In this document: in pieces, positions 1,814 to 51,934 of the stretch
Numbering within the stretch: position 1 is the stretch's first letter
Layout: every line of letters begins with the position of its first letter
Sequence record: MT446408.1
Reading direction: 5' to 3' (one strand)
From: Escherichia virus TH35
DNA: 64,000 nt
Translations under genes and position numbers: made by a program
The notes under the pieces: model-generated
Databases searched by the model: none
Told to the model about the DNA's origin: nothing
Seen by the model: the letters and a program-made list of their open reading frames with translations, nothing else

Positions 1814-1816
1814 ATC

Positions 1817-2601: not shown

Positions 2602-2613
2602 TAGGAGGCTAAT

Positions 2614-6462: not shown

Positions 6463-7982
6463 AAACACAAGGAATGCGCCACCAATTATTGGCGCTTGAT
6501 AAAGCAGGCCGCAGAAAATACTTTGCTTATTTCATGGAGCAGGGTCTTGGCAAAACCTGGACCGCTTTGGCAGAGTTTGAAAAGCATTTTACCGCTGGCG
6601 CATTTGATGCCATGGTTGTAATCGCTCCTAACGGTGTACACTCAAACTGGATTCGTCGTGAAGCACCAGAGCACCTTTCCATTAAATGGATTGGTCATTA
6701 CTGGCGCGGCAATGACAAAATGAAAACTAAAAAGGGCAAGGCGCTTTGGGAGAAGATGTTTGCTGATCACTATCCTGAAGGCGAAGTGCCTGCACGAATC
6801 TTCTCATTCAACATTGACACGGTGAACACGCCAGTCGGTTATCAACACATTGAGTCCGTACTGAAGAAGTACCGCTGTTTGATGATCATTGATGAATCGA
6901 CGCGTATCAAAAATAACACAGCCAAACGCTCCATCAAGGTTGTGGAATTGGGACGGCTGGCAAAGGCCCGTCGAATCCTTTCCGGTACGCCGCTGCCGCG
7001 CTCGCCTGCTGATATTTACATGCAGTATCACTTCCTTGAAGCTGGCTTGCTTGGCACAAAATCGTTCCGTGCATTCAACTCTGAATTTACAGTCCTGCTT
7101 GAAGCGCACGACCCAGAGATGCAGGCCATTCTCAAGAAAATCGGCGGCAACGGTTATGGCATTCCGCAAGTGCCGCGCAAAGACCATTTTGGCCGACCGA
7201 TGTACAAAAACCTTGACAAGCTTATCCGGCTGATGGAACCGCACTATTTTCGTGCGACAAAAGCGGAATACTTGCCGGACCTTCCAGAGAAGGTGTACAA
7301 GTTTATTGACTTCGAGTTGTCGCCTAAACAACGCGATGTTTACGATGAACTCAAGAATGAGTACAACTATCTGATGGAGTACAAAGGCGAAGAAGAAAAC
7401 GTTAAGTTTGAGATGATCGCATCTCGCACTAAGATGAAGCAGGTGACATCAGGCTTTGTTAAGGTGTATGATGAGATGGTCTACATGGAAGACAACCCAC
7501 GATTCACGGCCTTTAAGGACTATGTGGAAGGGGTGCTGGAAGACGACCCAGAGCGCAAATTCATTGTTTGGGCCATCTTTAAGGAAGAGATGAACCAGAT
7601 TAAGGACTGGCTTGAGTCTGAAGGCGTGGTCACTGGTGTATATAACGGTGAAACATCAAAAGAGCAGCGCGAGTTCTTGATTGATGACTTCCAGAAGAAC
7701 ACAGTTGAGAACGGTGGAACGCAAGTCTTAGTTTGTCACGCTGCAGCGGCAGGCATCGGAATCACGCTTACCGCCGCCGACTTGGCAATCTATTATTCTT
7801 GCAACTATGACAACGAGTTGCGCAAGCAATCCGAAGACCGAAATCACCGCATCGGCACCAAATCAAGCGTGTTGTATGTTGATTTTATTGGGGTTGATAC
7901 CATCGACGAAGAAATTCAGCGTTCATTGAGTATGAAGTCTATGCTTGCTGATCACATCCTCGACGGCAAAAAGATGAATTAA
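6459..7982 (+). CDS. SNF2-family helicase
   Basis: ORF track 507 aa; motif I GLGKT, motif II IIDESTRIKN, motif VI QSEDRNHRIG. Confidence 0.85.
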   Translation: MKTQGMRHQLLALDKAGRRKYFAYFMEQGLGKTWTALAEFEKHFTAGAFDAMVVIAPNGVHSNWIRREAPEHLSIKWIGHYWRGNDKMKTKKGKALWEKMFADHYPEGEVPARIFSFNIDTVNTPVGYQHIESVLKKYRCLMIIDESTRIKNNTAKRSIKVVELGRLAKARRILSGTPLPRSPADIYMQYHFLEAGLLGTKSFRAFNSEFTVLLEAHDPEMQAILKKIGGNGYGIPQVPRKDHFGRPMYKNLDKLIRLMEPHYFRATKAEYLPDLPEKVYKFIDFELSPKQRDVYDELKNEYNYLMEYKGEEENVKFEMIASRTKMKQVTSGFVKVYDEMVYMEDNPRFTAFKDYVEGVLEDDPERKFIVWAIFKEEMNQIKDWLESEGVVTGVYNGETSKEQREFLIDDFQKNTVENGGTQVLVCHAAAAGIGITLTAADLAIYYSCNYDNELRKQSEDRNHRIGTKSSVLYVDFIGVDTIDEEIQRSLSMKSMLADHILDGKKMN

Positions 7983-7995
7983 TATCAAAAATAAT

Positions 7996-8024
7996 TTGAC
8001 TTGTCACGGAAGATGAGTCATAAT
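7996..8024 (+). promoter_or_regulatory. Sigma70-like promoter (TTGACT-N17-CATAAT) with downstream GATGAG...CATCGAAACGAA box
   Basis: Read from sequence upstream of 8057 ATG. Confidence 0.5.
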
Positions 8025-8056
8025 TACTTCATCGAAACGAAACAGAGGAATACAAA

Positions 8057-8320
8057 ATGGTACGCATCCTTGAACGTTACAAAAATGAAGCTACTGGCGC
8101 AATCGCTTTCAAACGTCTTTTGGTCAAAGAAATTGACGGAATGTTTCGCATTGTTAAAGAGTTTGATTATGGCAACGGTGCTGGGGTGAATACCGTTATC
8201 ATGCCTGGCATCAAGGCGTATAAAACCTTAAAAGGCGCTGAGAAGGCTTTGTCGGCTTGGAAACCTGAACGTTATCAAATGACCCGTGTTGAAGGGCTAA
8301 TGCAAGAAGGTAAAATATGA
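8057..8320 (+). CDS. Hypothetical protein (87 aa)
   Basis: ORF track; RBS GAGGAA upstream; preferred over overlapping 8001-8189 ORF which covers the promoter. Confidence 0.6.
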   Translation: MVRILERYKNEATGAIAFKRLLVKEIDGMFRIVKEFDYGNGAGVNTVIMPGIKAYKTLKGAEKALSAWKPERYQMTRVEGLMQEGKI

Positions 8321-8874
8321 GCAATATTAATTGGGAAGATGATTTGCCGCAGGTCGCTCCTGAGAGCATTCAAGAGCGCCTTGCGCGCTTAGTATCTGAA
8401 TTGGCAGAACGCCAAGAAGCTTTGACAGAGCTTGAAGATGAAGCTGATATGCAAAAGCAGCGCATCAGTGAAATCAAGACTGTTTTACTTCCTGGCGTCA
8501 TGGATGAGCTTGGCGTGTCTGAAATCAAGCTTGAAGACAAGACCAAAATCAAGGTCGAGTCGAAAGTGAATGCTTCAATCAAGAAAGAAAACGAATTAAA
8601 AGTTTTCGATTGGCTTGTCAACAACGGTTACGGCGGCCTGATCAAGTCCAGCGTCACGGCTGAGTTCGGTCGCGAAGAAATCGAACAGGCGCAAGAGATT
8701 GTTGCCGCGCTGCGTGAAGATGGTGTTGAAGCAACGTTGAAACAAGGCGTTCATTCTGCTACACTGAAGTCATTTGTAAAAGAACAACTGGAAGCGGGCA
8801 ATCCAGTTAGTGAAGATATTAGCGTTTTTGAATACAAAGAAGCTAAAATAACCTTGCCTAAAAGCAAAAAGTAA
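8317..8874 (+). CDS. Hypothetical protein (185 aa) with N-terminal coiled-coil
   Basis: ORF track; translational coupling with upstream gene; function not assigned. Confidence 0.6.
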   Translation: MSNINWEDDLPQVAPESIQERLARLVSELAERQEALTELEDEADMQKQRISEIKTVLLPGVMDELGVSEIKLEDKTKIKVESKVNASIKKENELKVFDWLVNNGYGGLIKSSVTAEFGREEIEQAQEIVAALREDGVEATLKQGVHSATLKSFVKEQLEAGNPVSEDISVFEYKEAKITLPKSKK

Positions 8875-8933
8875 TTTAACCTTTATCTTGAAATCAGGTT
8901 GCCACGAAACTTGATACTATAGGAAAATATCAA

Positions 8934-9794
8934 ATGTCTAAGAAAGAAACTACCGAAGTTGCAGTGAAAAACACCCAGATGTCCGCTATGGCTGATTTTG
9001 TCGACATGACCGATTTTGGCGCTGGTTTTGAAGGTGCCGATGCCGATGCGTATGCCATTCCTTTTATCGTCGTACTGCAGAAGATGTCTCCTATGGTCGA
9101 CGAAGATGATCCAAAACACGTTCCTGGCGCAAAAGCTGGCATGCTTTACAACACCGTTACTGGTGAGTTGTATGACGGCAAGAAAGGCGTGCAGATCATC
9201 CCTTGCGCATTCAAACGCACCTTCATCCTTTGGGGCGGTCGCGAGTCCGACGATAAAGGCTTTAAAGGTGAATTCACCAAAGAGCACGTTGATGCAGAAG
9301 TAGCGGCAGGCCGCGCTGTTGAGATCAACGGTAAAGTGTTTGTGCCGGACGAAAACGGCAAAGTGCACGAGAAGAAATCGCCTTACTACGCAGATACACG
9401 TAACCACTTCGTAATTCTGTTGAACGAAGAAACTGGTGAATTTGGTAGCGCAATGTTGTCTTTGACTTCTTCGATGATCAAGCCGTCTCGCATGCTGATG
9501 ACCGCGCTGCAGCAGAAGAAAGTTCAGACTCCGCAAGGTCTGAAAACGCCGCCGACCTTTATGAACATCGTTCGCATGGGTACTGCATCCCAGTCCAAAG
9601 ACGGGAACACCTGGTCTGTTCTGAAGTTTGAGTTGGAAGGTCTGGTGCAGGACAAAGGTCTGTATGAAGTCGCCAAAGCATTCCACAACGATGTAGTTGG
9701 CGGCAACGTTAACATTGACCGCAGCAAGCAGGAAGAAGCAAGCGGTGCCGCTGGCCCTGTTAATGAAACTCCGACCGACGCAGAAGAGTTTTAA
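8934..9794 (+). CDS. Hypothetical protein (286 aa)
   Basis: ORF track; position between helicase and lysis genes; no confident family. Confidence 0.65.
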   Translation: MSKKETTEVAVKNTQMSAMADFVDMTDFGAGFEGADADAYAIPFIVVLQKMSPMVDEDDPKHVPGAKAGMLYNTVTGELYDGKKGVQIIPCAFKRTFILWGGRESDDKGFKGEFTKEHVDAEVAAGRAVEINGKVFVPDENGKVHEKKSPYYADTRNHFVILLNEETGEFGSAMLSLTSSMIKPSRMLMTALQQKKVQTPQGLKTPPTFMNIVRMGTASQSKDGNTWSVLKFELEGLVQDKGLYEVAKAFHNDVVGGNVNIDRSKQEEASGAAGPVNETPTDAEEF

Positions 9795-9812
9795 TCGACA
9801 ATCAAATCAACA

Positions 9813-9838
9813 AGGCTGCCGATTGGCGGCCTTTTATT
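9813..9838 (+). terminator. Rho-independent terminator
   Basis: GGCTGCC-GATT-GGCGGCC hairpin followed by TTTTATTT. Confidence 0.55.
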
Positions 9839-9851
9839 TATCTGGTGCATC

Positions 9852-10370
9852 ATGATAGAAAGAATTGTACCACTCCTGAAGATTATGGCCCTTGTTGGCG
9901 CGTTTGCCGCTGGATCATACGTTGAAGACCTGCAGCAAACCAACGCATCACTGGCCAAGGATAACCAATATCTGACATCGCTTAATGAGCGTAAGGACAA
10001 GATAAATGCACTCGAAGAGCAAATTGCATCTTTACAGGTTGAATCGGCATCGGCATATGAGAAAGGTCGCCAGGAAGCGCAACTGGTTGCTGATGACACT
10101 ATTGCTCGTTACAAGTCTGGGAATATCAAGTTGCGCGAGCAACTCAGCTGCTCCCGTGAGTTACTCAGGAGTGTGCCCGACTCTGCGACCACTGGACGCC
10201 TCTCTATCCCAGAAGGAAACTGTGGACTATCAGAAGAAGATGTCAGATTTCTTGTTCAGTTCGCCGCAGAAACAAACCGATTAAAAGATAAAGTTAATAG
10301 CTTGATTGATACTTATAATCAGGCTAAAATAAAAATCGATCAATTCAATGCATCAAAGGAAAATAAATGA
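9852..10370 (+). CDS. Rz-like i-spanin (inner-membrane spanin subunit)
   Basis: ORF track 172 aa; N-terminal transmembrane segment then long coiled-coil; contains embedded lipoprotein ORF in +1 frame. Confidence 0.6.
   Translation: MIERIVPLLKIMALVGAFAAGSYVEDLQQTNASLAKDNQYLTSLNERKDKINALEEQIASLQVESASAYEKGRQEAQLVADDTIARYKSGNIKLREQLSCSRELLRSVPDSATTGRLSIPEGNCGLSEEDVRFLVQFAAETNRLKDKVNSLIDTYNQAKIKIDQFNASKENK
10057..10284 (+). CDS. Rz1-like o-spanin (outer-membrane lipoprotein), embedded in the i-spanin gene
   Basis: ORF track 10006-10284; start moved to internal ATG 10057 giving MRKVARKRNWLLMTLLLVTSLGISSC signal peptide with lipobox Cys. Confidence 0.5.
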   Translation: MRKVARKRNWLLMTLLLVTSLGISSCASNSAAPVSYSGVCPTLRPLDASLSQKETVDYQKKMSDFLFSSPQKQTD

Positions 10371-10960
10371 AACAGATTTATGCAAACATTCGCCAGTGGG
10401 CTTCTGACCGTAACATCATCCAAGGTTGCGACCTTAAGGACCAATACCCGAAGCTTATCAGCGAGTTTGGGGAGTTAACCGACCACGTTGATCAACTCCA
10501 TGACCTTGTGTTCTTTGACCATGAAATTGAATATACAGAGCAGGCCATCTGTGACCTGCAGGCCGCAATCAAGGACGACATTGGTGATTGTCTTGTTGTA
10601 TTGACTATCCTTGCCGCGCAAAATGGTGCAAAAATCGAAGACATCAACGGCGGCGGTTGCGCTGACAAAGGTGCCCACCCTCACTCGTTTATCCTTCGCT
10701 TGGCAAAGACTCTCGGACGGCTTGGTGACGCCATTGCTAAAAATCAGAGCATGGATATTGATGTCACCATCATGGTCGCAGTCGATTACCTTTCCGGCGT
10801 AGCTCATGATTATGGCCTTCGCTTATCCGACTGTGCGCAAGCGGCCTACGAAGACATCAAGGACCGCAAAGGTGTCATGTACAACGGCACGTTTATCAAA
10901 TCGACTGATCAGGCTTACGCCTATGCGCTGGAACAAGTAATGAATGAGGGGAAAGAGTGA
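10367..10960 (+). CDS. MazG-like nucleotide pyrophosphohydrolase
   Basis: ORF track 197 aa; EFGELTDH and IGDCLVVL motifs typical of all-alpha NTP pyrophosphatases. Confidence 0.6.
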   Translation: MKQIYANIRQWASDRNIIQGCDLKDQYPKLISEFGELTDHVDQLHDLVFFDHEIEYTEQAICDLQAAIKDDIGDCLVVLTILAAQNGAKIEDINGGGCADKGAHPHSFILRLAKTLGRLGDAIAKNQSMDIDVTIMVAVDYLSGVAHDYGLRLSDCAQAAYEDIKDRKGVMYNGTFIKSTDQAYAYALEQVMNEGKE

Positions 10961-11934
10961 TGGCAGGAGAGATCAAAGCGCTTAAGCCAATGAAAGGCTG
11001 TCAACGTAAGCAAATCATCGAACGCGGTGAAGACGTTCCGTTACCTTGCGGATTGTCATTTAAGGTTGATGGCATACGTGCTATGGCTTATGACAAGCTT
11101 CCTATGGGTACGTCTGGAATGCCGCTGCGAAACGTTCAAATCAAGAAAGAGTTCCTTTTCTTGGGCGATTTGATTTACGGCCTTGATGGTGAACTCATCG
11201 ACGGCAATCCTAATGACAAGAACGTCATGCAGCAGGCATATACTGCGTGCATGAATACTGATGCAATAACTAACTTTACATGGTGGGTGTTTGATGACTT
11301 CAGCGACCCCGATTTACCTTTTGAAAAGCGTTATGCGAACTATCGGGCTAGAGTTGCTGAGGTCAATCAGTATCTCTTGGACCATGGCCACAGACCATTC
11401 CTTCGCGCCCTTGAATACCGAAACATTGAGAATATGGATCAATACGCGGCAATGCAAGTCGAAGCGGACCAGCTTGGATATGAAGGCTTATACGGCAAAT
11501 CGTGGACGGGCAAATACAAGCATGGTCGCGCAACGCCGAAGTCGCGTGATGTATGGAAAGACAAGCCGTGGACCGACGAAGAAGGACAGATCATAGATTT
11601 CGTCGAGATGATGGAGAATAACAACGAAGCGTTCATTGATGAGCTTGGTCGCACAAAACGATCAAAGGAAGCTGAAGGACTCGTTGCCAAGGGTTATCTC
11701 GGATCATTTGTCGTAGTCAATCCAAAGTATGTAGATGAGAAGGGTGAGATGATTCCTTTCCGTGTGTCCGCAGGTTCAATGCCTATGGCAGAGCGGAAGA
11801 TGCTTTGGGATAATCGCGAAAATTATCGCCACAAATACTTGACGTATAAATTCTTTAACTTTGGCATCGTTGACGTGCCGCGCTCTGCGCTTTATAAATG
11901 CTTCCGTGATATTACCGATATGGAGTATTTTTAA
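10957..11934 (+). CDS. ATP-dependent DNA ligase
   Basis: ORF track 325 aa; nucleotidyltransferase motif I FKVDGIR (KxDG). Confidence 0.75.
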   Translation: MMAGEIKALKPMKGCQRKQIIERGEDVPLPCGLSFKVDGIRAMAYDKLPMGTSGMPLRNVQIKKEFLFLGDLIYGLDGELIDGNPNDKNVMQQAYTACMNTDAITNFTWWVFDDFSDPDLPFEKRYANYRARVAEVNQYLLDHGHRPFLRALEYRNIENMDQYAAMQVEADQLGYEGLYGKSWTGKYKHGRATPKSRDVWKDKPWTDEEGQIIDFVEMMENNNEAFIDELGRTKRSKEAEGLVAKGYLGSFVVVNPKYVDEKGEMIPFRVSAGSMPMAERKMLWDNRENYRHKYLTYKFFNFGIVDVPRSALYKCFRDITDMEYF

Positions 11935-12008
11935 CACACTGGATAAATAATTGTTGCGTATAATCTATCGCGCCGTTTTATAGAATTTAATATACAGTGT
12001 ATACATAA

Positions 12009-12035
12009 AGCCGGAAATTTCCGGCTTTTCTTTTA
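12009..12035 (+). terminator. Rho-independent terminator
   Basis: Perfect palindrome AGCCGGAAATTTCCGGCT followed by T-run. Confidence 0.6.
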
Positions 12036-12050
12036 TTTACTTTCGGCGTA

Positions 12051-12078
12051 TTTACTTTCAAAACCTTAAGCCTATACT
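12051..12078 (+). promoter_or_regulatory. Sigma70-like promoter (TTTACT-N16-TATACT)
   Basis: Read from sequence upstream of 12110 ATG. Confidence 0.45.
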
Positions 12079-12109
12079 ATTAATATTCATAATCAAAAGG
12101 TGAATTATA

Positions 12110-12652
12110 ATGAAAGCGAACAAATTAAAGATTGTTTTGATCATCATCATGGCTATGCTGACAGTTATATTCTTCACCAAGACTGCATCGGCTGAAAATA
12201 TGTTCACGCCGCCGAATGGAAGTGCAAAAGTTTTGACAAGATATTTCAACAATGGGCAGTCATTTGAGTTTTGCTGGAATAAATACGACGTAATAAAAGA
12301 AAGATTTGACAAAGAAAAGATGTGCGTAATGAATGATCGCGGTCGGCAGGTCGTGTCGTTTGTGTTCGGAATGTCGATGGCAAAAGTTGATGCCCCTGAA
12401 ATCGTTGTCAGGTATAATACATTGGACAGCGGCCTTGTCGACAAGACATACCCTGTTGCAGTAGACAGCAGGACAGGCGGCGCACTAATACTCACTCCAG
12501 AAGATAAATCAGATGTCGTTAACATGCTCATCAACAGCAAAGACGTAATCGTGTTTTATCACATTGAAGGCGTATCAGACTACCAAATGGCCTACTATCC
12601 ACTGCCCTTGAGAGATGCTTCAGGTAATGTTAAGACACAGGAAGTGCGTTGA
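12110..12652 (+). CDS. Secreted hypothetical protein with cleavable N-terminal signal peptide
   Basis: ORF track 180 aa; MKANKLKIVLIIIMAMLTVIFFTKTASA signal-peptide-like N-terminus. Confidence 0.6.
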   Translation: MKANKLKIVLIIIMAMLTVIFFTKTASAENMFTPPNGSAKVLTRYFNNGQSFEFCWNKYDVIKERFDKEKMCVMNDRGRQVVSFVFGMSMAKVDAPEIVVRYNTLDSGLVDKTYPVAVDSRTGGALILTPEDKSDVVNMLINSKDVIVFYHIEGVSDYQMAYYPLPLRDASGNVKTQEVR

Positions 12653-12879
12653 CATGGGTGGTAGTTATGCAGAAAGATTTGGAAGAAAACAAAAGGCTGA
12701 AAAAGGCTTTGACGTCTCAAATCTTGTCCCTGTTGGTAAAGCTTATTGGGGAGTCAATTAGCAACAAGGTGGCACGGGCCGCGATTGTAGGTGTGATTGG
12801 TATGGCGGGGTATTACTTCGACTTGCCAGACATTGATACAAGTTCCGCTCCGCCCGTCCAAGTTGAAGCCGTAAAATAA
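12649..12879 (+). CDS. Small membrane protein (76 aa), holin candidate
   Basis: ORF track; single hydrophobic segment AAIVGVIGMAGYYF; adjacent to convergent endolysin gene. Confidence 0.45.
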   Translation: MTWVVVMQKDLEENKRLKKALTSQILSLLVKLIGESISNKVARAAIVGVIGMAGYYFDLPDIDTSSAPPVQVEAVK

Positions 12880-12881
12880 AC

Positions 12882-12904
12882 AAAGGCCCATATGGGCCTT
12901 TTTC
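12882..12904. terminator. Bidirectional terminator between convergent + and - transcription units
   Basis: Perfect palindrome AAAGGCCCATATGGGCCTTT flanked by A/T runs on both strands. Confidence 0.65.
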
Positions 12905-13549
12905 TTACATGACTGCTAGTGCATCCTTGTAACGCTTTCTTCGCAACTCACCGTGGTTCGCTGCGTTCGGCGCGGCCCCATTAATCCGCTTAACGGTTGA
13001 ATCAAAATTCCCTGCATCCGCAAGAGGAATACAACCACTATTCTTAAAGAACCATGCCGCGCTGTCGGCAATGTATTTTGGTTCAGTCAGAATATCAGGA
13101 TTGTTCAATGCATCATAGCCTGATTGACGCGTATATTCAGCATAGTTCGCTTTGCCAGTCAGCTGAATGGCACCACGGCCACGGTACTTCCAACCGTCGC
13201 CAGATGCTACCGAACCGTTGCCCATGCGGTTTGCGTATGTATTATTGGCGATTTCCATAGGTTTACGTGCAATCGACAGGGCCAATGAGTTCGGGGCGCT
13301 TCCAGCACGACCGTTGACGCTGTAACGACTAGGCCATGTATTGGCAAGGCCCTGTGCAGAGTAGTTGAGATTTTCCACAAAGGTCTTCAAGCCGCCCGTC
13401 TCTACTCCTACGTTTGCAAGGAATGCTGCAATGGCATTCTTGCTTTTTATTCCGTAGTGCTCACAAGCCTGCTTGAAAGGATCCACCCAATTTTCTGCAA
13501 CATCCGTGCTGCATCCTGTCCCTTTAGATATTACGTTTGCATTAATCAT
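12905..13549 (-). CDS. Endolysin, glycoside hydrolase family 19 type
   Basis: ORF track 214 aa; AAFLANVGVETGGL and GDGWKYRGRGAIQLTGKANY motifs. Confidence 0.8.
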   Translation of the reverse strand: MINANVISKGTGCSTDVAENWVDPFKQACEHYGIKSKNAIAAFLANVGVETGGLKTFVENLNYSAQGLANTWPSRYSVNGRAGSAPNSLALSIARKPMEIANNTYANRMGNGSVASGDGWKYRGRGAIQLTGKANYAEYTRQSGYDALNNPDILTEPKYIADSAAWFFKNSGCIPLADAGNFDSTVKRINGAAPNAANHGELRRKRYKDALAVM

Positions 13550-13557
13550 AAATCACC

Positions 13558-15345
13558 TTATGCGCTTCTGTACCAGCCATTCAAAACAACGTATCGCGGC
13601 AAAGTCGCAACAGCCGTTGGCACCGACTGCCCTGCATTGCCAGTGTTACCGACCACATCGTGAGTGTGAGCGGGAAGGGTATAGCTGTGGCTGTGATTGC
13701 CAGCGTAATTTATATTCAACCCATGGGTGTGTGATCCAGAAGATTGAATATTATGAACGTGGTTGCCATTAGTTGACGTATTGTATTTGTAGTTATCCCA
13801 GTCGCCGCCTTTGCGACTTCCGAAGTTGTTGTGTGTCCCATCATAAACGCCGTACCGCGCATCGCTAGTATTGGCTTCACCCCAGCTACTGTCATGGTGG
13901 TGGTTGCCTGCCGTGTCCATTCCGTGCACGTGAGCGCCGTTTTGACTGGTATCGCCTGTGTGGTTGTGGTTGCCTGCGTCTCCAGTGGTATTGGACCATG
14001 GACCACTTTGTCGCGTGGTAATGTTCACGCTGTGATTGTGGAGAGGAAGCATGGCGGCGGTAAGGGTAACAGAGTCTGCTCCGCCTGTATCAAGACCGTT
14101 TCGTGCAGCGCCGGACGTGCGAATCACCATGTTATCAGGCAGTCGTGTCCATACCTGGCCGTAAGCGCCCAGTTTAGTATTCGGGTTGGTCCCGTTGGTG
14201 AGGAATCGAGTCTCACCGACTTCGAACACATCACCCATAGTGATCAACTTCGCAGCCAAAGCATCGAGTTGGCGCTTTGTAACAAACTGTTGCGGCTCAG
14301 TAGCATCAACGCCGATTTGCGCCGCGCCAAACGCCTGAAGGAGACGCCAAACAGTTCCGTCATAAATGATGGTGAATGGCAGCAATCCTACGATAGCGCC
14401 AGCTGGCAACTCGCCGCCGTCGAATCCAAGAACGGCAACTTTGTTTACACCAATGGTCACGGTGACAGGTCCGGTAGTCGTTACATCATTGACGATTGTC
14501 AGGCGACTACCTGCTGACGGAGGCCATGAATACCCTGCTGGAACGGTGAGAATTATATCTTGCGCGCCTTTACCTGATGCAAGATTCGGCGTTCCAATTT
14601 GCACATCTTGAACAGTGGCATTTTGAATCCAAGCACTCCAAGCACCAGAAGTATAAGAGCGAGTAAACAAATAGCCATTCATTGATGTATATTGCTGCAA
14701 GGCAAAGGTTTGCGCATCGACCTGCCAAGCGCAGACCTGCAGTCGACCTGCAACCTTCGTTGCGCCAACCGCATTCGGGATGTTAGAGCACAGAGCGGCG
14801 ACGGCATCGGATTGAATGACGATAGTTGTGGATGTCGTGATGTTATCGAAGTCCACAAAACTTGAAATCAATCCGCGAACAAAGTACGGGTTTTGCGCAT
14901 CGCCGCCAGCAGGCATCGGAATGTATTTTCGCGCTTCGCTGGGCAGTGTTAATTCCTGCCAAGATTCCGTTTCTCCGTTAGCTGGGACGGCGCTTGTGTT
15001 GCCGTCGACCACGCTCTGAAAGATGCGCCACTCAGGTGCTGAAGGCGTTCCAGAGTTGCTGACAACGATGGCATTTTTCGGGTATCCATCAGGCTTCAAG
15101 TCAGAAGAGAAATATTGTTGAGCGCCATGATCTTGAATAAACATAAGGTTGTCTGTGATCAAATTCAGCAACCAGTTCATCGATTCGCGCTCAACAGCTT
15201 TCGCGGCGACGTTTCCAGCCTCCAGAGCAAGCGCATAGTCAGGGGTGTAGCCGCGCTGGAAGTTTACATAACCGCTTGGGCTTGCATCCGGCACCACGGA
15301 TACATCACCGCTTTGCGCGAAAGGTCTGTTAATAAGTGTTGGCAT
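13558..15345 (-). CDS. Tail fiber protein with His-rich C-terminal repeats
   Basis: ORF track 13558-15402; start moved to ATG 15345 (RBS AGAGGAA); repeated HxH motifs near C-terminus. Confidence 0.7.
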   Translation of the reverse strand: MPTLINRPFAQSGDVSVVPDASPSGYVNFQRGYTPDYALALEAGNVAAKAVERESMNWLLNLITDNLMFIQDHGAQQYFSSDLKPDGYPKNAIVVSNSGTPSAPEWRIFQSVVDGNTSAVPANGETESWQELTLPSEARKYIPMPAGGDAQNPYFVRGLISSFVDFDNITTSTTIVIQSDAVAALCSNIPNAVGATKVAGRLQVCAWQVDAQTFALQQYTSMNGYLFTRSYTSGAWSAWIQNATVQDVQIGTPNLASGKGAQDIILTVPAGYSWPPSAGSRLTIVNDVTTTGPVTVTIGVNKVAVLGFDGGELPAGAIVGLLPFTIIYDGTVWRLLQAFGAAQIGVDATEPQQFVTKRQLDALAAKLITMGDVFEVGETRFLTNGTNPNTKLGAYGQVWTRLPDNMVIRTSGAARNGLDTGGADSVTLTAAMLPLHNHSVNITTRQSGPWSNTTGDAGNHNHTGDTSQNGAHVHGMDTAGNHHHDSSWGEANTSDARYGVYDGTHNNFGSRKGGDWDNYKYNTSTNGNHVHNIQSSGSHTHGLNINYAGNHSHSYTLPAHTHDVVGNTGNAGQSVPTAVATLPRYVVLNGWYRSA

Positions 15346-34460: not shown

Positions 34461-34564
34461 CCACCCTCAAATAAGTATTGTGTATTATATCTAATGAAAA
34501 AAACTTAGGCAAACAATAATTATGGTTTGAATATGTATAACAACCGATATAGCCGCGCCTTAAT

Positions 34565-34835
34565 TAGTGTGATACGGATGATACGGATAAAATGAGGCGT
34601 ATTTTTATCCGTATCGGTGTATAAGCCGCGCTATCACTGGTGTGCTACGGATGATACGGATGATACGGATACTTTTCATATATAAGAGTTTATAAAAAAA
34701 AATAAAATTAAATTAGATATATAATTTTAAATTAATTTATTTGAATTCCTATAAAGTATCGCGGCAACGCGTATCATCCGTATCATCCGTAAGATTCTTT
34801 TGAAAACAACTACTTACTTGATACGGATGATACGT
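34565..34835. repeat. Iteron-like array of GATACGGAT 9-mers (both orientations) flanking a ~70-bp AT-rich core
   Basis: About 9 copies read directly; 21-mer ATCCGTATCATCCGTAAGATT is shared with 50974-50994. Confidence 0.6.
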
Positions 34836-34878
34836 CATTATACGCGTAAAATCCTGCGGCAATCCATTGCCAGGCGAT

Positions 34879-45943: not shown

Positions 45944-46339
45944 ATGATCATTGATATTGAAAAGGCGCTTAAGCGCGAACTGACGCCAGGTGCAACTCCT
46001 GGTGAAGAGGCTTATTACCGGCCCAAGCCGCAACGCACTAATGATATTCCGGTCTTCAAGCGTACAGTGAATAAAAACGGTCAGCGGTCGCGACCGCGCT
46101 CTATCCGGTCCGGTGAGAAGCTGAAAACGATTCGCCAGTGTCTACAACGACTCGAAATCATGGGTTGTCGCGCTTATATCGACCCTGATGGAAAGGTTCT
46201 GGTGAGAATTGGCAATAGTACACATCTACAGGACGGATTGCCCTGCGGCGAATCCAGACCCATAGCCAAGACCGACCGTGTGGCTACTGGCCGCGAGATT
46301 GAGGAAAGTTGGTTGGGTGCTTTCTTATTAAAATATTGA
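45944..46339 (+). CDS. Hypothetical protein (131 aa)
   Basis: ORF track. Confidence 0.55.
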   Translation: MIIDIEKALKRELTPGATPGEEAYYRPKPQRTNDIPVFKRTVNKNGQRSRPRSIRSGEKLKTIRQCLQRLEIMGCRAYIDPDGKVLVRIGNSTHLQDGLPCGESRPIAKTDRVATGREIEESWLGAFLLKY

Positions 46340-46346
46340 GGATTAT

Positions 46347-46595
46347 ATGAATCAAAATGAATCAGTAGCATTCTTACAATGGCTGGAAGGTGTGGTGGAG
46401 TATAACGCAGCAAACGACCGCTTCATCTTTCAAGGTAAAAGTTACAAGCGCAAAGGTCAAGCCCAGAAAGCTGCGCGCAAGTACTGGAAAGAAGTTTATT
46501 CAGAATTTTTCTCTCAGATGGGTATCGTCGGCGCTACTGTTCACGGCGACCCAGCACAATTGGTATCGATTGATGAATCCAATCGTCACAATTAA
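46347..46595 (+). CDS. Hypothetical protein (82 aa)
   Basis: ORF track. Confidence 0.55.
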   Translation: MNQNESVAFLQWLEGVVEYNAANDRFIFQGKSYKRKGQAQKAARKYWKEVYSEFFSQMGIVGATVHGDPAQLVSIDESNRHN

Positions 46596-46638
46596 CAAAC
46601 CGATTTGAATGCCGCGCCATGCGACTTTATTATAGTTA

Positions 46639-47049
46639 TTGTTAATCACCCTCATGAAAGGTAATGATATGTCAAATAAGAATGATTCTATTCACAATAC
46701 ATATACTAAAGGCAGCGGAATGGCCTTTGGTGGCAGTATCAAAATTGACGTTCCATCTTGCGATTCTGATGGATTGGAAGTCGGCAACCGCGACTTAACA
46801 TGGGTTTTACGTCGCCAATCTGATTTAGAAGAGAAGCTGGAAAATATTGAGCGTTCTCTCGAAAGTTTGCGCGATCAGCTTTTTGGTTGTTCTGAAGATG
46901 ATTCACAACCTGGACCATATGCAGCCAATCATGGTTTGATTGATAATATGCTTGCTATTACCGCTCGATCAATTGGTAAAACTGTGTCCATTGAATCATT
47001 GATCAGCCAGATTGCGGATGGCTTTGGTGATGCCCATAAGAGCGAATAG
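46639..47049 (+). CDS. Hypothetical protein (136 aa)
   Basis: ORF track; true start may be internal ATG near 46669. Confidence 0.55.
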   Translation: MLITLMKGNDMSNKNDSIHNTYTKGSGMAFGGSIKIDVPSCDSDGLEVGNRDLTWVLRRQSDLEEKLENIERSLESLRDQLFGCSEDDSQPGPYAANHGLIDNMLAITARSIGKTVSIESLISQIADGFGDAHKSE

Positions 47050-47079
47050 TGGGTGGATGTTGCTTTAACCGTGAATCGT

Positions 47080-47105
47080 GGGTCGCTGTGGCGGCCCTTT
47101 ATTTT
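47080..47105 (+). terminator. Rho-independent terminator
   Basis: GGGTCGC-TGTG-GCGGCCC hairpin followed by TTTATTTT. Confidence 0.55.
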
Positions 47106-47109
47106 GCCT

Positions 47110-47745
47110 GCCGCGCAGGAGTGTACTGCAAATTTACTGTGGGCACAAAATAGTACGGTACTGTCTAGGACTTTTTCTTTGAAAAGTTAGTGGACCAAAT
47201 GTGTCGTATTTTGATTAGTGTACTGCAAATTTCATCAAGTACCAAAACGCACCAAAAGACCCATGCCCTAAAAACCACACGAACGCAATAATCAATCGCC
47301 GTTACAGTTTCCAGCGTTACAATTCGAAAGCGAATGATTCGATACACAATAATATGAAGCATAATGATTCGAAAGCGAATGATTGCGTGTAGTATAATAT
47401 CGGTGGGGATTATTCTAGATGCATGTAATTTCGCATGCGTACTATTTTCGGACGAAGGGTCGGCATATTCCTCGTTTTAGTTCGGAACGAAGGGAAAGTT
47501 TTGCGCCTTTATAAAACAACGACTTACGCAACCCGCCCTAACGGTCCGATATAGGTGTCTATATAAAACAAGGACTTACGCGATGTTCTCCATTTAACGT
47601 AATACCCGTTATGCGAACTAAGGAGCATCTCGAAGAAGATTATGAGGCGACGAAGGGAAGGATAAAGGAGTTTTCGCGGAGAAGCGCATCGAGATAGGGA
47701 CGAAGAAAAGCCGCGACTAAGCGCGGCCTATTAGTAACGGAAGGA
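47110..47745. repeat. Noncoding repeat-rich region (~640 bp) with several direct repeats
   Basis: TACTGCAAATTT x2, TTCGAAAGCGAATGATT x2, TATAAAACAA(C/G)GACTTACGC x2, ACGAAGGG x3-4 read directly; only one weak 65-aa ORF. Confidence 0.5.
47689..47712 (-). terminator. Rho-independent terminator for acidic paralog A
   Basis: On - strand GCCGCG-CTTAGT-CGCGGC hairpin followed by TTTTCTT. Confidence 0.45.
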
Positions 47746-47747
47746 TA

Positions 47748-48038
47748 TTATAAGGAGACAATTTTAAAATAAGTTACTTCGCCGCCGAGTTGCGGTACAG
47801 CGATATATTCGCCGCCGATTTCGGTAATCGTATAAACGAAGCCGTTAATCGTTACGCGATAGGATACGATGTCCTCGTCGCGATACTTGTAAAGGTCGAG
47901 GAAGTTGATCGGCTCATAAATAGACTCGATAATCGCGTCGACGTTAGAGAGATAAACGCTCTCTAAGGTTTCGCCAAATACGTTAGAGTTTTCGGAAGTT
48001 TCGACGCGAGCGGAACGGATAGCGGCTAAAGTAATCAT
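47748..48038 (-). CDS. Acidic small protein, paralog A (96 aa, net charge about -10)
   Basis: ORF track; RBS AGGAG; own promoter; similar to 48146-48448 and 48674-48958. Confidence 0.65.
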   Translation of the reverse strand: MITLAAIRSARVETSENSNVFGETLESVYLSNVDAIIESIYEPINFLDLYKYRDEDIVSYRVTINGFVYTITEIGGEYIAVPQLGGEVTYFKIVSL

Positions 48039-48105
48039 AATAATCTCCTAGTTGGTCGGGCGGGTAGCGACCTATTCGCTACCTCATCCCCTCTCGATAT
48101 AAAAC

Positions 48106-48134
48106 ATTATAGTATTAGTGTACGAAGAAGTAAA
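48106..48134 (-). promoter_or_regulatory. Sigma70-like promoter TTTACT-N17-TATAAT with upstream CGAAAAAGTGC element
   Basis: Read on - strand; near-identical to promoter at 48577-48604. Confidence 0.6.
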
Positions 48135-48145
48135 GCACTTTTTCG

Positions 48146-48448
48146 TTATTTTGCGATAAAATGTTTATAAGCTTTATCGCCTTCTACGTCGATATACTCG
48201 ACGATAATTAACGCTTCGTCGCGAGGCGTAACCGTCTCGATAAGGGTAACGGCTTCGTCGTCGGTCTTCGCGAAGCGGATGGCGCTACGTTCGGCGTATT
48301 TCATATCGTCGAAGGAAAGGCCGACGAAGGCGAACGCGCGGACCTTAATAGCGGTCCCGTCTAGTTCCGCGTTAACGGCTTTAAGAAGAGAAGCGACGGT
48401 TAAGCGGTCTTCGTCGTAAGTAAGGATAGAAGAGATTAAAGTGGTCAT
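48146..48448 (-). CDS. Acidic small protein, paralog B (100 aa)
   Basis: ORF track 48146-48505; start moved to ATG 48448 (RBS GGGAG) because the promoter -10 lies at 48505-48510. Confidence 0.6.
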   Translation of the reverse strand: MTTLISSILTYDEDRLTVASLLKAVNAELDGTAIKVRAFAFVGLSFDDMKYAERSAIRFAKTDDEAVTLIETVTPRDEALIIVEYIDVEGDKAYKHFIAK

Positions 48449-48504
48449 AATAAAACTCCCGATGCTAGTAGAAGGAAGGGCCATCGCCCGTCTCGATATA
48501 AACA

Positions 48505-48532
48505 AGTATACGCGAGTGTACGAAGAAGTAAA
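48505..48532 (-). promoter_or_regulatory. Sigma70-like promoter TTTACT-N16-TATACT
   Basis: Read on - strand upstream of paralog B. Confidence 0.5.
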
Positions 48533-48576
48533 GAAAAAAGATAAAATAATTTATCTCATTTTTATCGAAAAAGTGC

Positions 48577-48604
48577 TTTACTTTTTTCTACACTATATTA
48601 TAAT
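48577..48604 (+). promoter_or_regulatory. Sigma70-like promoter TTTACT-N16/17-TATAAT with upstream CGAAAAAGTGC element
   Basis: Read on + strand upstream of paralog C; about 60-nt leader to ATG. Confidence 0.6.
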
Positions 48605-48673
48605 GTACTCATATCGGGACGGGATGAGTTAACGAATAGGTCGTTAACGCCCGTCGAGAACTAGGAGTTTAAA

Positions 48674-48958
48674 ATGGCTATTCTTAACGTTTCTTCCATC
48701 CGTAACGCTATCGTCGAGAACTACGGCGTAAAACAAATTTTATCCGAAGTCTACGCCGCGAACGTAGACCAAACTATCGAGGCAGGTGGGGTAACGGTCG
48801 CCGAGGCTTTTAAACTTTACGCGGCGCTACCGGAATCGGACCGCGAAGCCTTCGAAGTAAACGTTAACGGATACTTCTTCGAAGCGGTCGAAATCGGTAA
48901 CACCTTACTCGTTATGGGCGAAGAAGAATTTGAGACCTTCTCCCTCGTCGAAGCGTAA
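48674..48958 (+). CDS. Acidic small protein, paralog C (94 aa, net charge about -12)
   Basis: ORF track; RBS AGGAG; own promoter and terminator. Confidence 0.65.
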   Translation: MAILNVSSIRNAIVENYGVKQILSEVYAANVDQTIEAGGVTVAEAFKLYAALPESDREAFEVNVNGYFFEAVEIGNTLLVMGEEEFETFSLVEA

Positions 48959-48972
48959 GAGAGGATTTTTAG

Positions 48973-48998
48973 AGCGTCGTGCGCGACGCTTTAATAAA
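48973..48998 (+). terminator. Terminator hairpin after paralog C
   Basis: AGCGTCGTGCGCGACGCT palindrome followed by TTTAATAAAATTCTTT. Confidence 0.5.
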
Positions 48999-49038
48999 AT
49001 TCTTTCGCGCCTAGCGCCCTAACAAATAGGAGTTTATT

Positions 49039-49665
49039 ATGGTTAGCTTAAATCGTTTCTCGACTAGCGGCGACGTTATCGCAACTAAGACCGCCGACCT
49101 CGTTGCATTTTATAATGCAAATTCCGGTTCGAAGCCGATTAAGAAATTTTCGGACCGCCGGACCGCCGAGGCTCGCGTAATAGCGTTAATCGAGTCCTTA
49201 AACGCGCTCGATGAGCCGTCCAACGAATCGCCCATCCCAGACGCGAAGTCGCGCGAGGAAGTGCCCAGCGATGTAAAAACGCATAAGGCGCGTGCGGTCG
49301 TTAAAAAGTCCGAGCCGACCCAGGAAGAACTCGACGCGATGACCGACGAAGAGTATGAAGCCTTCGTTAAGAGCGGTTTAAACGATAGTGCAAATTGCGT
49401 AGTGCAAAATGGAACTCCTTCCCATCGCCGTTCAAATAGCGAAGGTATTGCGAAAAGTTGGGATAACAAGGAAGTGGCGCAAAAGCGTCTCACGCGTAAC
49501 GGCGTTATGGTCGAGGGTGTAGGCGAGTTCAAATCGGTCCGCGTAGCGTTTGCTGCGCTGGGCTTACCGGATAGCAAGCACATTCGCTTCCGCATGAAGC
49601 TTAAAGAAGCTGGACGATTGAACTTTGAGTTCGGCAACAAGTCCTACACCTTCCAGATCATCTAA
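49039..49665 (+). CDS. Hypothetical protein (208 aa), mosaic composition
   Basis: ORF track; RBS AGGAG; 5' half CpG-rich like the acidic cassette; contains two ATAGTGCAAAT-type motifs at 49385-49410. Confidence 0.6.
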   Translation: MVSLNRFSTSGDVIATKTADLVAFYNANSGSKPIKKFSDRRTAEARVIALIESLNALDEPSNESPIPDAKSREEVPSDVKTHKARAVVKKSEPTQEELDAMTDEEYEAFVKSGLNDSANCVVQNGTPSHRRSNSEGIAKSWDNKEVAQKRLTRNGVMVEGVGEFKSVRVAFAALGLPDSKHIRFRMKLKEAGRLNFEFGNKSYTFQII

Positions 49666-49671
49666 TCGAAT

Positions 49672-49694
49672 GGCGGCCCTTCGGGGTCGCTTTT
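49672..49694 (+). terminator. Rho-independent terminator
   Basis: GCGGCCC-TTCG-GGGTCGC hairpin (one G-U pair) followed by TTTT; followed immediately by ATAGTGCAAAT. Confidence 0.5.
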
Positions 49695-49715
49695 CATAGT
49701 GCAAATTGGTGGCTT

Positions 49716-49979
49716 ATGAATACGCTTATTCTTATCGCTACGTTGTCCATCGGAAGTGGTCGCACCTTATCCCTTTATGATCATAGTGCAAATTGCGCTT
49801 ACCCAACGCGCGTTGCGGTGATAGTTAATAGTGCAAATCGAATGCTATTCGAGACTTGTTGGCGGGTCGATAACGAGAAAGGTCGGGTAGTCTTAGGTTA
49901 TAGTGCAAATCTGCTGGTGGAGTCGTTCGATTGGACGGTTGAAGGCCGTAAATTGTTACGGAAAGTGACTAAAAGATGA
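49716..49979 (+). CDS. Doubtful ORF (87 aa) carrying three ATAGTGCAAAT motif copies
   Basis: ORF track; GGTGG as possible RBS; coding status uncertain. Confidence 0.3.
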   Translation: MNTLILIATLSIGSGRTLSLYDHSANCAYPTRVAVIVNSANRMLFETCWRVDNEKGRVVLGYSANLLVESFDWTVEGRKLLRKVTKR

Positions 49980-50040
49980 CTTATAATAATACACTTTCTA
50001 ACGCGTTTATGGTTGTAACCTTCCCCGTCGTATTACCGAT

Positions 50041-50080
50041 GGCCCTAGAAGTGGAGAAAATGTGTTCTAGGGCCGTTTTA
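50041..50080 (+). terminator. Rho-independent terminator
   Basis: Perfect 10-bp stem GGCCCTAGAA/TTCTAGGGCC followed by GTTTTA, then ATAGTGCAAAT. Confidence 0.55.
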
Positions 50081-50093
50081 TAGTGCAAATTGG

Positions 50094-50582
50094 CTAGTGG
50101 CGGGAGAATTGCTCACCTTCTTTGGCCGCCTCTCCAAAATCCTTGTAGAAATCGTCCATAGAACGGCCCATTTTACTATTGCCGTTTTCATCAATCATCG
50201 TGATGCCGTAGATGATATTCAGTTCACGAATAGCATTAAGCTTGGCTGATGCCGCGACTTCTGGATCACGCACAAGCTTGACCAAATTGTGAATTGCACC
50301 TTTTACGCTCCACAAATCCTTTAGCGGCATTTCTTCCATACGCTTTTTGAAGCGCATTTTGTAGTACGGATTGCGTTGTGCGCAAAGGATTCGCTGGCCA
50401 GTGTAGTTATCCGTTGCAACTTCCATTCCAAATACTAGTGCAAAAGCTGCGCGCATGTCATGGCCCTGAATAACAAGGTCAATGAACTCATCGAATAAGG
50501 CCTGATTGTGCTCTGCAAATCGCGGGTCTTCAAAGTCTTCAGGCATCGCTACATAGTCTTGACTCATAGTGCAAAATCCCAT
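50094..50582 (-). CDS. Hypothetical protein (162 aa); motif copies overlap both gene ends
   Basis: ORF track; start codon overlaps an ATAGTGCAAAAT copy; no clear RBS; function not assigned. Confidence 0.55.
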   Translation of the reverse strand: MGFCTMSQDYVAMPEDFEDPRFAEHNQALFDEFIDLVIQGHDMRAAFALVFGMEVATDNYTGQRILCAQRNPYYKMRFKKRMEEMPLKDLWSVKGAIHNLVKLVRDPEVAASAKLNAIRELNIIYGITMIDENGNSKMGRSMDDFYKDFGEAAKEGEQFSRH

Positions 50583-50714
50583 AGTGCAAATTAATAGTGT
50601 GAATTATACAATGGATGAACATTATATTCAAGTGCAGATTGATGTTCATTATGGCTATAAACGTACACAAATCATATTGCGGAATGAATAGCGGACCGTG
50701 GTGCGTGGTGTACT

Positions 50715-51130
50715 GTTTGATACGTATAAAAGAAATCCATCCCTTTCGCCGCTTGTTATGCAAATCAATGACTTAGCCGCTGCTGGCTGGTTTAAGCGTA
50801 TCATGACGTATCATCCGTATTGCCGCAAGTCTTTGTTTTTACTTATATCTTACGGATAATACGTATAAATATAAGTTTAGTATAAGTATGAGGATATGAA
50901 AAAAATTAATTTAAATGTTTTTAAAATGGAGTTTATTTATTTTTGGAGTTTTATATATAACGATGCCCAGTTTTATCCGTATCATCCGTAAGATTAATGT
51001 ACAAGCCAGGCGCGGCAAGGGCTGTACACTGATACGGATAAAAAAACATGACGTATCATGACGTAAGGGTGTACCACTTTGGAAAAGAGGAATCCAGGAA
51101 CGGTGCGGCCTGCAGCCATGATACGCTTAA
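50715..51130. repeat. Second iteron-like array (GATACGGAT and GTATCATGACGTA repeats) flanking a ~90-bp AT-rich core
   Basis: Read directly; shares 21-mer ATCCGTATCATCCGTAAGATT with 34774-34794. Confidence 0.6.
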
Positions 51131-51397: not shown

Positions 51398-51934
51398 TTA
51401 TCCGCTGACCTTCCAGTCACCATTCCTTTTATCACGCTTCTTTAACTCCGTTTTAATGACATTATTATCCACAATAACTCCTAAACGGCGCAATTCACAC
51501 ATGACCTTGTGGCGATATTGTCGAAGCTTTTTGACGTCCATTGTGCTCCTTGAATAAGATAGTACCATAAAAATAATATCATCATTCATTTTGTAACGCA
51601 TACAAGTTTTATAATGCCTTTTGAAAATTGCATTTACGGCATCTGTTTTCAGCAATTCATCCATTAATTCTGGATTCCCTTCACAGACGTTAATGACCCA
51701 TTCATCCCTTGATTTTGCCGCTTTCAATCCCCTTAGAGTTAATAACTCATATAATGCCTTTCTGCACTTAGAGCAATCACCAATTGTCAAACTTGATTCC
51801 ATTTCTTGAGCATCGGTCAACTCTGTATTGCCTTTGTTGAATTTACCGCACAAGCTGATTTGCTCGCCGTTGTCAAAGTAGTGGGCAAGTTTTGAGTATC
51901 GCGGCTTGCCCCATCCTGCAACGTTACCCATCAC
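51398..51934 (-). CDS. Hypothetical early protein (178 aa)
   Basis: ORF track. Confidence 0.55.
   Translation of the reverse strand: MMGNVAGWGKPRYSKLAHYFDNGEQISLCGKFNKGNTELTDAQEMESSLTIGDCSKCRKALYELLTLRGLKAAKSRDEWVINVCEGNPELMDELLKTDAVNAIFKRHYKTCMRYKMNDDIIFMVLSYSRSTMDVKKLRQYRHKVMCELRRLGVIVDNNVIKTELKKRDKRNGDWKVSG

Follow-up and report, generated by a model that had tools for sequence, protein, structure and literature searches.

Why a phage should keep, between its tail-fibre-side genes and a cassette of small acidic genes, some 640 bp of repeat-rich, CpG-rich DNA with no convincing open reading frame (ORF) is the question raised by positions 47110-47745 of Escherichia virus TH35 (record MT446408.1), of which a stretch of 64,000 nucleotides, hereafter the window, was analysed. 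A sequence-only reading of this locus had offered three candidate explanations: a structured noncoding RNA, an origin, or the boundary scar of an acquired module. Our comparative analysis explains most of the region as an untranslated, conserved junction where a known direct terminal repeat (DTR) has its inner boundary, and we think it probable that this junction is cis-acting DNA for forming or handling the right end of the packaged genome.

Position relative to the terminal repeat

The source phage is a Wifcevirus, a myophage of E. coli and Shigella, and is 91-95% identical to WFC, WFH, Mansfield and ECML-117. Judged by the termini mapped in such relatives, the region appears to contain the inner end of the DTR, a 3,673-bp element on the minus strand (47255-50927), one copy of which lies in the window. 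The conventional genome start corresponds to window position 50927, read on the minus strand, and the records of WFH, WFC and Mansfield begin there, their initial 400 bases mapping downwards from this point. At the other end, the record ends of WFH, SP13 and Ro157lw and position 3673 of Mansfield, genomes that come from different laboratories, all map to window position 47255; the right ends of WFH, SP13, Ro157lw and the Mansfield repeat read ...GGCATGGGTCTTT, the reverse complement of 47255-47267. Both repeat copies are present in the WFH, WFC, SP13 and Ro157lw records. For Mansfield, a 3,673-bp repeat with its inner end within the homologous region was predicted by PhageTerm (PMC6753283); the termini of Ro157lw were determined independently, also by PhageTerm, as long repeats of the T5 type (PMC6454146), and repeats of about 3.7 kb have been described for WFC and WFH (PMC6563267).

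The right-end cut site (47240-47274, cut between 47254 and 47255) reads TACCAAAACGCACCA / AAAGACCCATGCC and is the terminus in the relatives. Its context, TACCAAAACGCACCA/AAAGACCC, holds two copies of ACCAAAA, 11 bp apart, and 5% of the columns from 47249 to 47288 are variable in the alignment of 20 genomes on which our conservation estimates are based. For tens of bases on either side of the cut the aligned source phage is identical to the relatives named above, from which we infer that it is probably cut at 47254/47255 as well. With a cut there, 47255-47745 would be the last ~490 bp of every virion's right end; the same sequence would recur internally, at a distance of 3.2-3.7 kb from the left end, and 47098-47254 would be the first unique DNA past the cut. 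The repeat carries at least six genes, including that of the small terminase (50094-50582, minus strand, 345 bp from the left physical end; match to PDB 7uxe_A, E = 6e-34), which, since it sits inside the terminal repeat, is present twice per virion. Comparison of the other repeat-encoded proteins with Pfam, PHROGs and NCBIfam assigned no function.

The gene-free span proper, 47050-47747, is a gap between convergent genes enclosed by two intrinsic terminators. It is adjoined in unique DNA by the gene for an acidic protein of 126 amino acids (aa) (46669-47049, plus strand), the last of the rightward tail-fibre-side set, whose product has no Pfam or PHROG match. On the other side lies the first gene inside the repeat (47748-48038, minus strand), which encodes a genus-restricted 96-aa protein with an isoelectric point (pI) of 4.2 and has the promoter TTTACT-N17-TATAAT at 48134-48106. 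The plus-strand terminator (47080-47105, hairpin 47080-47097) consists of GGGTCGCTGTGGCGGCCC followed by the T-run TTTATTTT and is annotated as a terminator in the WFH and WFC records. The minus-strand terminator (47708-47729), GGCCGCGCTTAGTCGCGGC followed by TTTTCTT, ends the minus-strand early-type genes, is invariant in the 20 genomes and is annotated in Mansfield, WFH and WFC. Just upstream of the plus-strand terminator, at about window position 47075, Mansfield carries a tandem expansion, (GTGGGTC)x5; the source phage has two copies at this site, GTGGGTG at 47051 and GTGGGTC at 47079.

Positions 46000-49000 are matched by blastn in 28 Wifcevirus records at 91-95% identity. The noncoding stretch alone is 88.5-96.7% identical, reaching at least 95% in 21 of the 28, and is full-length in these records and in five metagenome contigs. 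Used as a query against metagenomes, the invariant cut-site 19-mer returned five Wifcevirus contigs (93-96% identity) and eight matches dissimilar to the window. Distant blastn against 50,697 phage records found the noncoding stretch in Wifcevirus only, scans of IMG/VR with the flanking proteins found nothing outside the genus, and tblastn against all phage records restricted the 96-aa protein and a second, 100-aa protein of the repeat to Wifcevirus. As no relatives beyond the genus turned up, footprinting past about 90% identity is impossible. An origin from the host or a plasmid was rejected, as neither 5,426 E. coli genomes nor 72,556 plasmids contain a match to the region.

Direct repeats and coding capacity

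All four families of direct repeats reported by the sequence-only reading are present and exceed chance. AGTGTACTGCAAATTT, of 16 nt, occurs in two exact copies at 47120-47135 and 47217-47232. TTCGAAAGCGAATGATT, at 47323 and 47368, is the core of D1, a tandem duplication of 43-45 nt whose units (47313-47355 and 47358-47400) are 74% identical. D2 is a 23-nt pair of the form CT(T/A)TATAAAACAA(C/G)GACTTACGC at 47507-47529 and 47559-47581, 52 bp apart; ACGAAGGG occurs at 47452, 47487 and 47650, its first two copies falling inside D3, a 22-nt pair at 47438-47459 and 47473-47494. Altogether the region holds 19 repeated 10-mers, against a mean of 1.5 in 636-bp windows of the genome (top 0.9%) and of 0.4 in Markov-1 simulations, of which 0 in 2000 reached 19. 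An exact search of the 64-kb window found no further copies of the longer repeats; with copies that are local only, a role as genome-wide promoters was ruled out.

The absence of a convincing ORF was confirmed as well. Of the seven ORFs of 31-65 aa, not one stays intact throughout the 20 related genomes or has an excess of third-position substitutions among them, a signal that is present in both flanking genes (81 vs 53/55 and 59 vs 32/25). With no conserved ORF and no codon-position signal, a missed protein-coding gene was rejected, and so was a decayed paralogue of the neighbours, since tblastn with the proteins encoded on either side found no similar frame in the region. The gap is empty in the curated BASEL annotations, and small ORFs have been called there in the kaset and Mansfield records. 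The high CpG content that had been noted amounts to an observed/expected ratio of 1.68 (96th percentile of the window). It is not inherent to the noncoding DNA: the ratio is 0.84 in 47110-47254 and about 1.9 from 47255 on, and in the ~2 kb of genes that follow it stays at 2.0-2.5.

Conservation of the junction

The junction divides into three zones, for which nucleotide diversity (pi) was benchmarked on 11 genomes with the same flanking alleles. Zone A (47098-47254), on the unique side beyond the cut, contains the two AGTGTACTGCAAATTT copies and five GTAC sites, where 0.31 would be expected in its 157 bp; nowhere else in the window are such sites so dense, and four of these five are invariant in the 20 genomes. 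Its CA/TG and CpG abundance is normal. Zone B (47255-47440) comprises first the terminal 58 bp (47255-47312), the extreme right end of the packaged DNA, with 6.9% variable columns; then D1 (47313-47400, plus strand), the tandem 45-bp duplication, with a weak sigma-70-like promoter match per copy; and finally a variable spacer (47401-47440) with a non-conserved hairpin at 47419-47440. Zone C (47441-47707), which includes D3, D2 and ACGAAGGG, is poor in CA/TG and rich in CpG and TpA, and has no similarity to the neighbouring proteins.

At third-codon positions, pi is 0.129 in the 126-aa gene and 0.094 in the 96-aa gene. Values of 0.033 in zone A, 0.018 in the terminal 58 bp and 0.038 in zone C show that these segments evolve 2.5-7 times more slowly than the third-codon positions of their neighbours, and pi is 0 in the minus-strand terminator. 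The diversity of D1 is 0.071, and that of 47401-47440, at 0.119, is near the third-codon diversity of the neighbours; the hairpin, evolving at a neutral-like rate, is broken in many relatives by a CAT to TCG change. In Bas100 exactly one 45-bp D1 unit is absent, so that one copy is dispensable. The profile of the 20 genomes, in which noncoding diversity lies below that of the flanking genes, agrees with the 11-genome set. We read this pattern as two blocks of DNA that appear to be under purifying selection, with a tolerant spacer between them, which is what the 45-bp duplication and the hairpin look like.

The whole region might in principle be a functionless spacer or a decayed gene between modules, given its lack of coding capacity and a central part (47313-47440) that is partly dispensable or neutral-like. 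Such an explanation is extremely improbable, however, since most of the region evolves at the slow rates just given, no frame resembles the neighbouring proteins, and the sequence persists at full length in every record and metagenome contig counted above.

RNA, promoter and replication signals

A structured noncoding RNA is not supported by family searches, folding or covariation. In an Rfam scan (E <= 10) the best match, NsiR4, scored 16.1 bits against a gathering score of 40 (E = 2.1) and covers the terminator hairpin only, and a tRNA scan of the region found none. Folding in 120-nt windows on both strands gave z scores from -2.2 to +1.4, negative only over the terminators, and alifold covariation was about zero in the 20-genome alignment, a weak test with sequences that are ~95% identical.

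Transcription could also concern D1 itself, if its promoter matches fired on the plus strand and produced a noncoding RNA that runs through zone C and is antisense to the 96-aa gene. Plus-strand promoter-like matches do lie at 47324-47353 (9/12) and 47369-47398 (10/12, with TATAAT), and the minus-strand terminator has no T-run on the plus strand, so that read-through is possible. We nevertheless consider this quite unlikely, because the promoter-like matches are not more numerous than in shuffled sequence (6 vs 4.0 +/- 2.1), most relatives have GATAAT or AATAAT in place of TATAAT, D1 is the least conserved of the repeats and has lost a copy in Bas100, and the region has neither a stable or covarying structure nor an Rfam family.

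Direct repeats spaced by 35-52 bp and the AT-rich composition of D1 (39% G+C) are features that iterons of a replication origin might have. An origin is very unlikely here, however: each repeat family has two copies, DnaA boxes (TTWTNCACA) are absent from 47050-47750 even with one mismatch allowed, no initiator gene adjoins the region among the Pfam and PHROG matches, and a better iteron candidate, the 9-mer GATACGGAT, is found elsewhere in the window.

This 9-mer clusters in only two noncoding places, 34551-34834 and 50813-51039, the latter spanning both sides of the left end at 50927. It often stands in a 9-bp tandem register and also forms a 22-nt perfect inverted repeat; matches with at most one mismatch number 25, against 10.3 +/- 3.6 in shuffles, and are absent from 47110-47745. 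The arrays look like iterons and might serve an origin, terminase or a regulator. Over 71 nt, positions 50795-50865 also resemble 34776-34845 (77%), and a perfect DnaA box, TTATCCACA, lies at 51465-51473 on the plus strand, 540 bp outside the left repeat boundary.

A block depleted of CA and TG

The composition of zone C continues beyond the noncoding DNA. Maximum-likelihood edges at 47440 and ~49210 delimit a CA/TG-depleted block (47441 to ~49210) of 1.77 kb, which begins 186 bp from the right terminus, disregards gene borders and ends inside the gene at 49039-49665. Relative to the rest of the window, CpA/TpG abundance falls from 1.17 +/- 0.20 to 0.16-0.5, and CpG and TpA rise from 1.09 to ~2.0-2.5 and from 0.66 to 1.15-1.5, respectively. 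In zone C the relative abundance (rho) is 0.36 for CA, 0.28 for TG and 1.87 for CG, with 7 CA and 5 TG in 307 bp, and just 11-14 CA/TG per 289 bp are found in all 20 genomes. Depletion is equal for CA and TG and extends over genes of both strands and intergenic DNA. It is conserved in all relatives examined, WFC retaining it although its 96-aa gene has diverged by 30% in nucleotide sequence.

The block contains three small acidic genes (47748-48038 and 48146-48448 on the minus strand, 48674-48958 on the plus strand) for proteins of 94-100 aa with pI 4.0-4.7 and no family match; those of 96 and 94 aa show weak paralogy (27% identity, E = 1e-4). In the genes of the block, CpG falls at codon position 3|1, and the three proteins are nearly without Cys, Trp, His, Gln and internal Met. 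One of three near-identical sigma-70-type promoters (GCTTTACTTCTTCGTACACT...TATAAT) precedes each gene, at 48106-48134 (minus strand), 48505-48532 (minus strand) and 48577-48604 (plus strand), with the CA/TG-free -35 element TTTACT. This arrangement suggests a strongly expressed early cassette.

Being strand-symmetric, blind to gene borders and kept across divergence, the depletion can be regarded as a selected, position-defined property of duplex DNA. Causes at the level of mRNA, such as codon usage or RNA cleavage, were ruled out by its strand symmetry and its extension into noncoding DNA. Avoidance of restriction sites was not convincing either, as the block retains one EcoKI site and five EcoP1I sites; by a simple estimate, CA or TG would be present in no more than about half of random 6-bp sites. 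A literature search found no precedent for a CA/TG-free segment in a phage, and we know of no such dinucleotide-free phage segment. In the T5 terminal repeat CA/TG depletion is absent and CpG just mildly raised. Within T5 positions 1-14000, the left terminal repeat has a CpG relative abundance of 1.0-1.6, which drops to 0.4-0.9 immediately past it, a milder step than the one seen here.

As a tentative and rather speculative idea, zone C may be the edge of a 'recoded' 1.77-kb stretch in which selection on duplex DNA removes CA/TG through transitions to CG or TA. In its boldest form this would make the block a positional 'stealth' segment, consisting of DNA that lies open in the cell at a time when the rest of the genome is not yet protected, or that meets a phage nuclease active against host DNA, with the junction as the gate. 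Wifceviruses, which have recently been brought onto E. coli K-12 derivatives, are reported to be unusually fast and to resist most restriction systems tested, without a known mechanism of protection. The terminal repeat, the early-type acidic cassette and the CA/TG-free block are obvious places to seek an explanation.

Exchange of modules at the junction

Pairwise comparisons show that the junction adjoins divergent alleles on both sides. WFC and Bas99 are 100% identical in the 126-aa gene, 99.4% in zone A, 100% in zone B and 97.9% in zone C, and 70.3% identical in the 96-aa gene. For WFC and WFH the corresponding values are 89%, 96.8%, 88.7% and 98.6%, with 98.6% in the 96-aa gene. ECO71P1 has an allele of the 126-aa gene that is 57-61% identical at the nucleotide level, beside a zone A that is 97.5% identical, and for the 96-aa protein there are two types of allele (63.5% identical) beside a zone C that is 96-99% identical. 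In Eco4M-7, ECML-117, F13 and FEC19, moreover, an extra 210-bp gene lies at ~47745, between the minus-strand terminator and the 96-aa gene; its 70-aa product is named a 'transcriptional regulator' in the records of F13, FEC19 (RefSeq) and ECML-117 (RefSeq).

Since the conserved junction adjoins such divergent alleles, modules have been exchanged on both sides with breakpoints in the junction, which would thus serve as a homologous joint for the exchange of gene modules. The boundary scar of an acquired module therefore holds in part: the region is a boundary, being the end of the repeat, the edge of the block of aberrant composition and a recombination joint. It is not a decaying scar, as it is more conserved than the flanking genes.

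Motifs around the repeat boundaries

The motif AGTGTACWG occurs three times in the 64 kb, a number reached in 0 of 100 shuffles. Two of the copies are in zone A, and the third, inverted, lies at 51022-51030 on the minus strand, 95 bp outside the left repeat boundary. This placement hints at a symmetric recognition flanking the repeat, a hint to which we give little weight.

The GTGTAC repeats of zone A, and possibly D1-D3, might instead be operators for a phage regulator that also binds at the early promoters, so that the shut-off of early genes would be linked to the end of the repeat. The window has 17 GTGTAC sites, of which eight fall in 47121-51074, two of these eight in the early-type promoter spacers of the 96-aa and 100-aa genes; ATTAGTGTAC is common to D4 and the promoter of the 96-aa gene; and the four relatives with the inserted 70-aa gene carry a product named as a regulator, in three of them, directly beside the region. 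We hold such a regulatory array to be quite unlikely all the same, because no promoter is predicted in zone A, the source phage has no regulator gene adjoining the region, and the enrichment of the motif was noticed post hoc.

Discussion

Cis-acting DNA that forms or handles the right end, placed in an untranslated junction at the inner boundary of the DTR, is in our view the probable identity of the region. Observation covers the site at which the genomes of relatives terminate, the two terminators, the lack of coding, the pattern of conservation and the mosaicism; that the source phage has the same cut, and which protein may read which repeat, we infer. We propose the following hypothetical scheme, in which (i) the converging genes would stop at the two intrinsic terminators on either side of the junction; (ii) packaging from concatemers would end with a sequence-specific cut at 47254/47255; (iii) the AGTGTAC/GTAC array of zone A, the 58 bp at the cut and the repeats of zone C would act as signals for making and handling the end, through recognition by terminase or a nicking activity, a packaging stop and duplication of the repeat; (iv) terminase or an associated nicking activity would read zone A and the 58 bp, whereupon packaging ends and the right terminus is made; and (v) zone C would act as another cis element within the terminal ~490 bp, separated from the first by the duplication and the hairpin as spacer.

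Several points weigh against this proposal. The cut at 47254/47255 is transferred to the source phage by homology from its relatives, and the WFC record ends 81 bp further, at window position 47174, either because WFC has a different cut site or because the end of its record was set differently. The two repeat boundaries share no obvious common cut-site motif. The third copy of AGTGTACWG, present in left flanks of the WFC type, is absent from those of the WFH/ECML-117 type, and because WFH has the same left end without it, the motif is not essential for left-end cutting. Each repeat has two copies only, and any protein that binds them is hypothetical. Conservation of the junction could in part reflect homogenisation by recombination rather than function. 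Finally, the data do not distinguish a role in packaging from one in injection, regulation or replication.

For most phages, the way in which a long exact terminal repeat is cut and duplicated still awaits an explanation, as the authors of the Ro157lw study state for this genus (PMC6454146). The region offers a compact and tractable candidate for a right-end signal, of ~215 bp round the mapped cut plus a second block of 290 bp, with natural controls in the dispensable spacer and the Bas100 deletion. For annotators, the calling of small ORFs in the region should cease, and in genome rebooting or engineering 47098-47729 is best treated as cis-essential until shown otherwise.

Among known systems, the closest anatomical parallel is found in T5, whose left terminal repeat ends at position 10139, inside the untranslated Repeat Region 3 (9194-10409) (Davison, bioRxiv 10.1101/866236). 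This region follows terminators, lies between convergent genes, runs 270 bp into unique DNA, contains many direct repeats, is more conserved than the adjacent ORFs among T5-like phages, and has been proposed as an injection stop signal (bioRxiv 10.1101/866236). The Wifcevirus junction is likewise untranslated and repeat-rich, lies between convergent genes after terminators, is situated mostly inside the repeat but extends across its end, and shows higher conservation than the ORFs that the repeat encodes; its overrun into unique DNA is ~157 bp. It differs in length (0.65 kb, compared with 1.2 kb in T5), in having two-copy repeats where T5 has families of up to nine copies, in its few palindromes, in lacking sequence similarity and the paired DnaA boxes of T5, and in its depletion of CA/TG, which the T5 repeat does not share. 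We therefore regard the junction as analogous to Repeat Region 3, and not as a member of the same class.

An injection-stop or two-step entry signal of the T5 kind would have the left end enter first and host RNA polymerase transcribe the minus-strand early-type genes inward until it stops at 47729-47708; zones C to A would then hold the DNA until repeat-encoded proteins permit the rest to enter. The shared anatomy argues for it, as do the three strong promoters, which drive small, acidic, genus-specific proteins and look like those of an early cassette, and the classification of the Ro157lw repeat as T5-type by PhageTerm. We consider it unlikely, however: the paired DnaA boxes that Davison reports in all T5-like phages have no counterpart here even with one mismatch, distant blastn found the sequence in Wifcevirus only and gave no similarity to T5, the repeat carries the gene for the small terminase, not an obvious pre-early function, and two-step entry in this genus is an analogy with T5.

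For a role in forming the right end, which we favour, T7 provides a second comparison. T7 makes exact terminal repeats by sequence-specific processing of concatemers. Its concatemer junction, which Dunn and Studier in 1983 and the packaging papers of the Hinkle laboratory are said to describe, reportedly has short, noncoding repeat arrays directly beside the terminal repeat. That repeat is 160 bp long and gene-free, whereas the one described here is 3.7 kb long and holds at least six genes, that of the small terminase among them. The Pbunavirus phages of the PB1/E217 group, named as distant relatives, share the virion type and a homologous small terminase (the PDB 7uxe_A match). For Pbunavirus genomes, terminal redundancy and circular permutation have been described (PMC12345254). 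As these relatives are described as circularly permuted, the fixed repeat and its junction are apparently specific to Wifcevirus, and no counterpart of the region outside the genus was found in phage records, IMG/VR or metagenome scans.

Within the genus, the DTRs of Mansfield, WFC/WFH and Ro157lw are the same element, and the repeat and its boundary are already in GenBank and in three papers. Neither the noncoding junction with its repeats and conservation, nor the mosaic joint, nor the anomaly in dinucleotides is mentioned in PMC6753283, PMC6563267, PMC6454146, PMC7048862 or bioRxiv 2024.09.12.612763. What our analysis adds to the known repeat is the architecture of two constrained blocks and a spacer, the role of the junction as a recombination joint, and the CA/TG-free block that begins within it.

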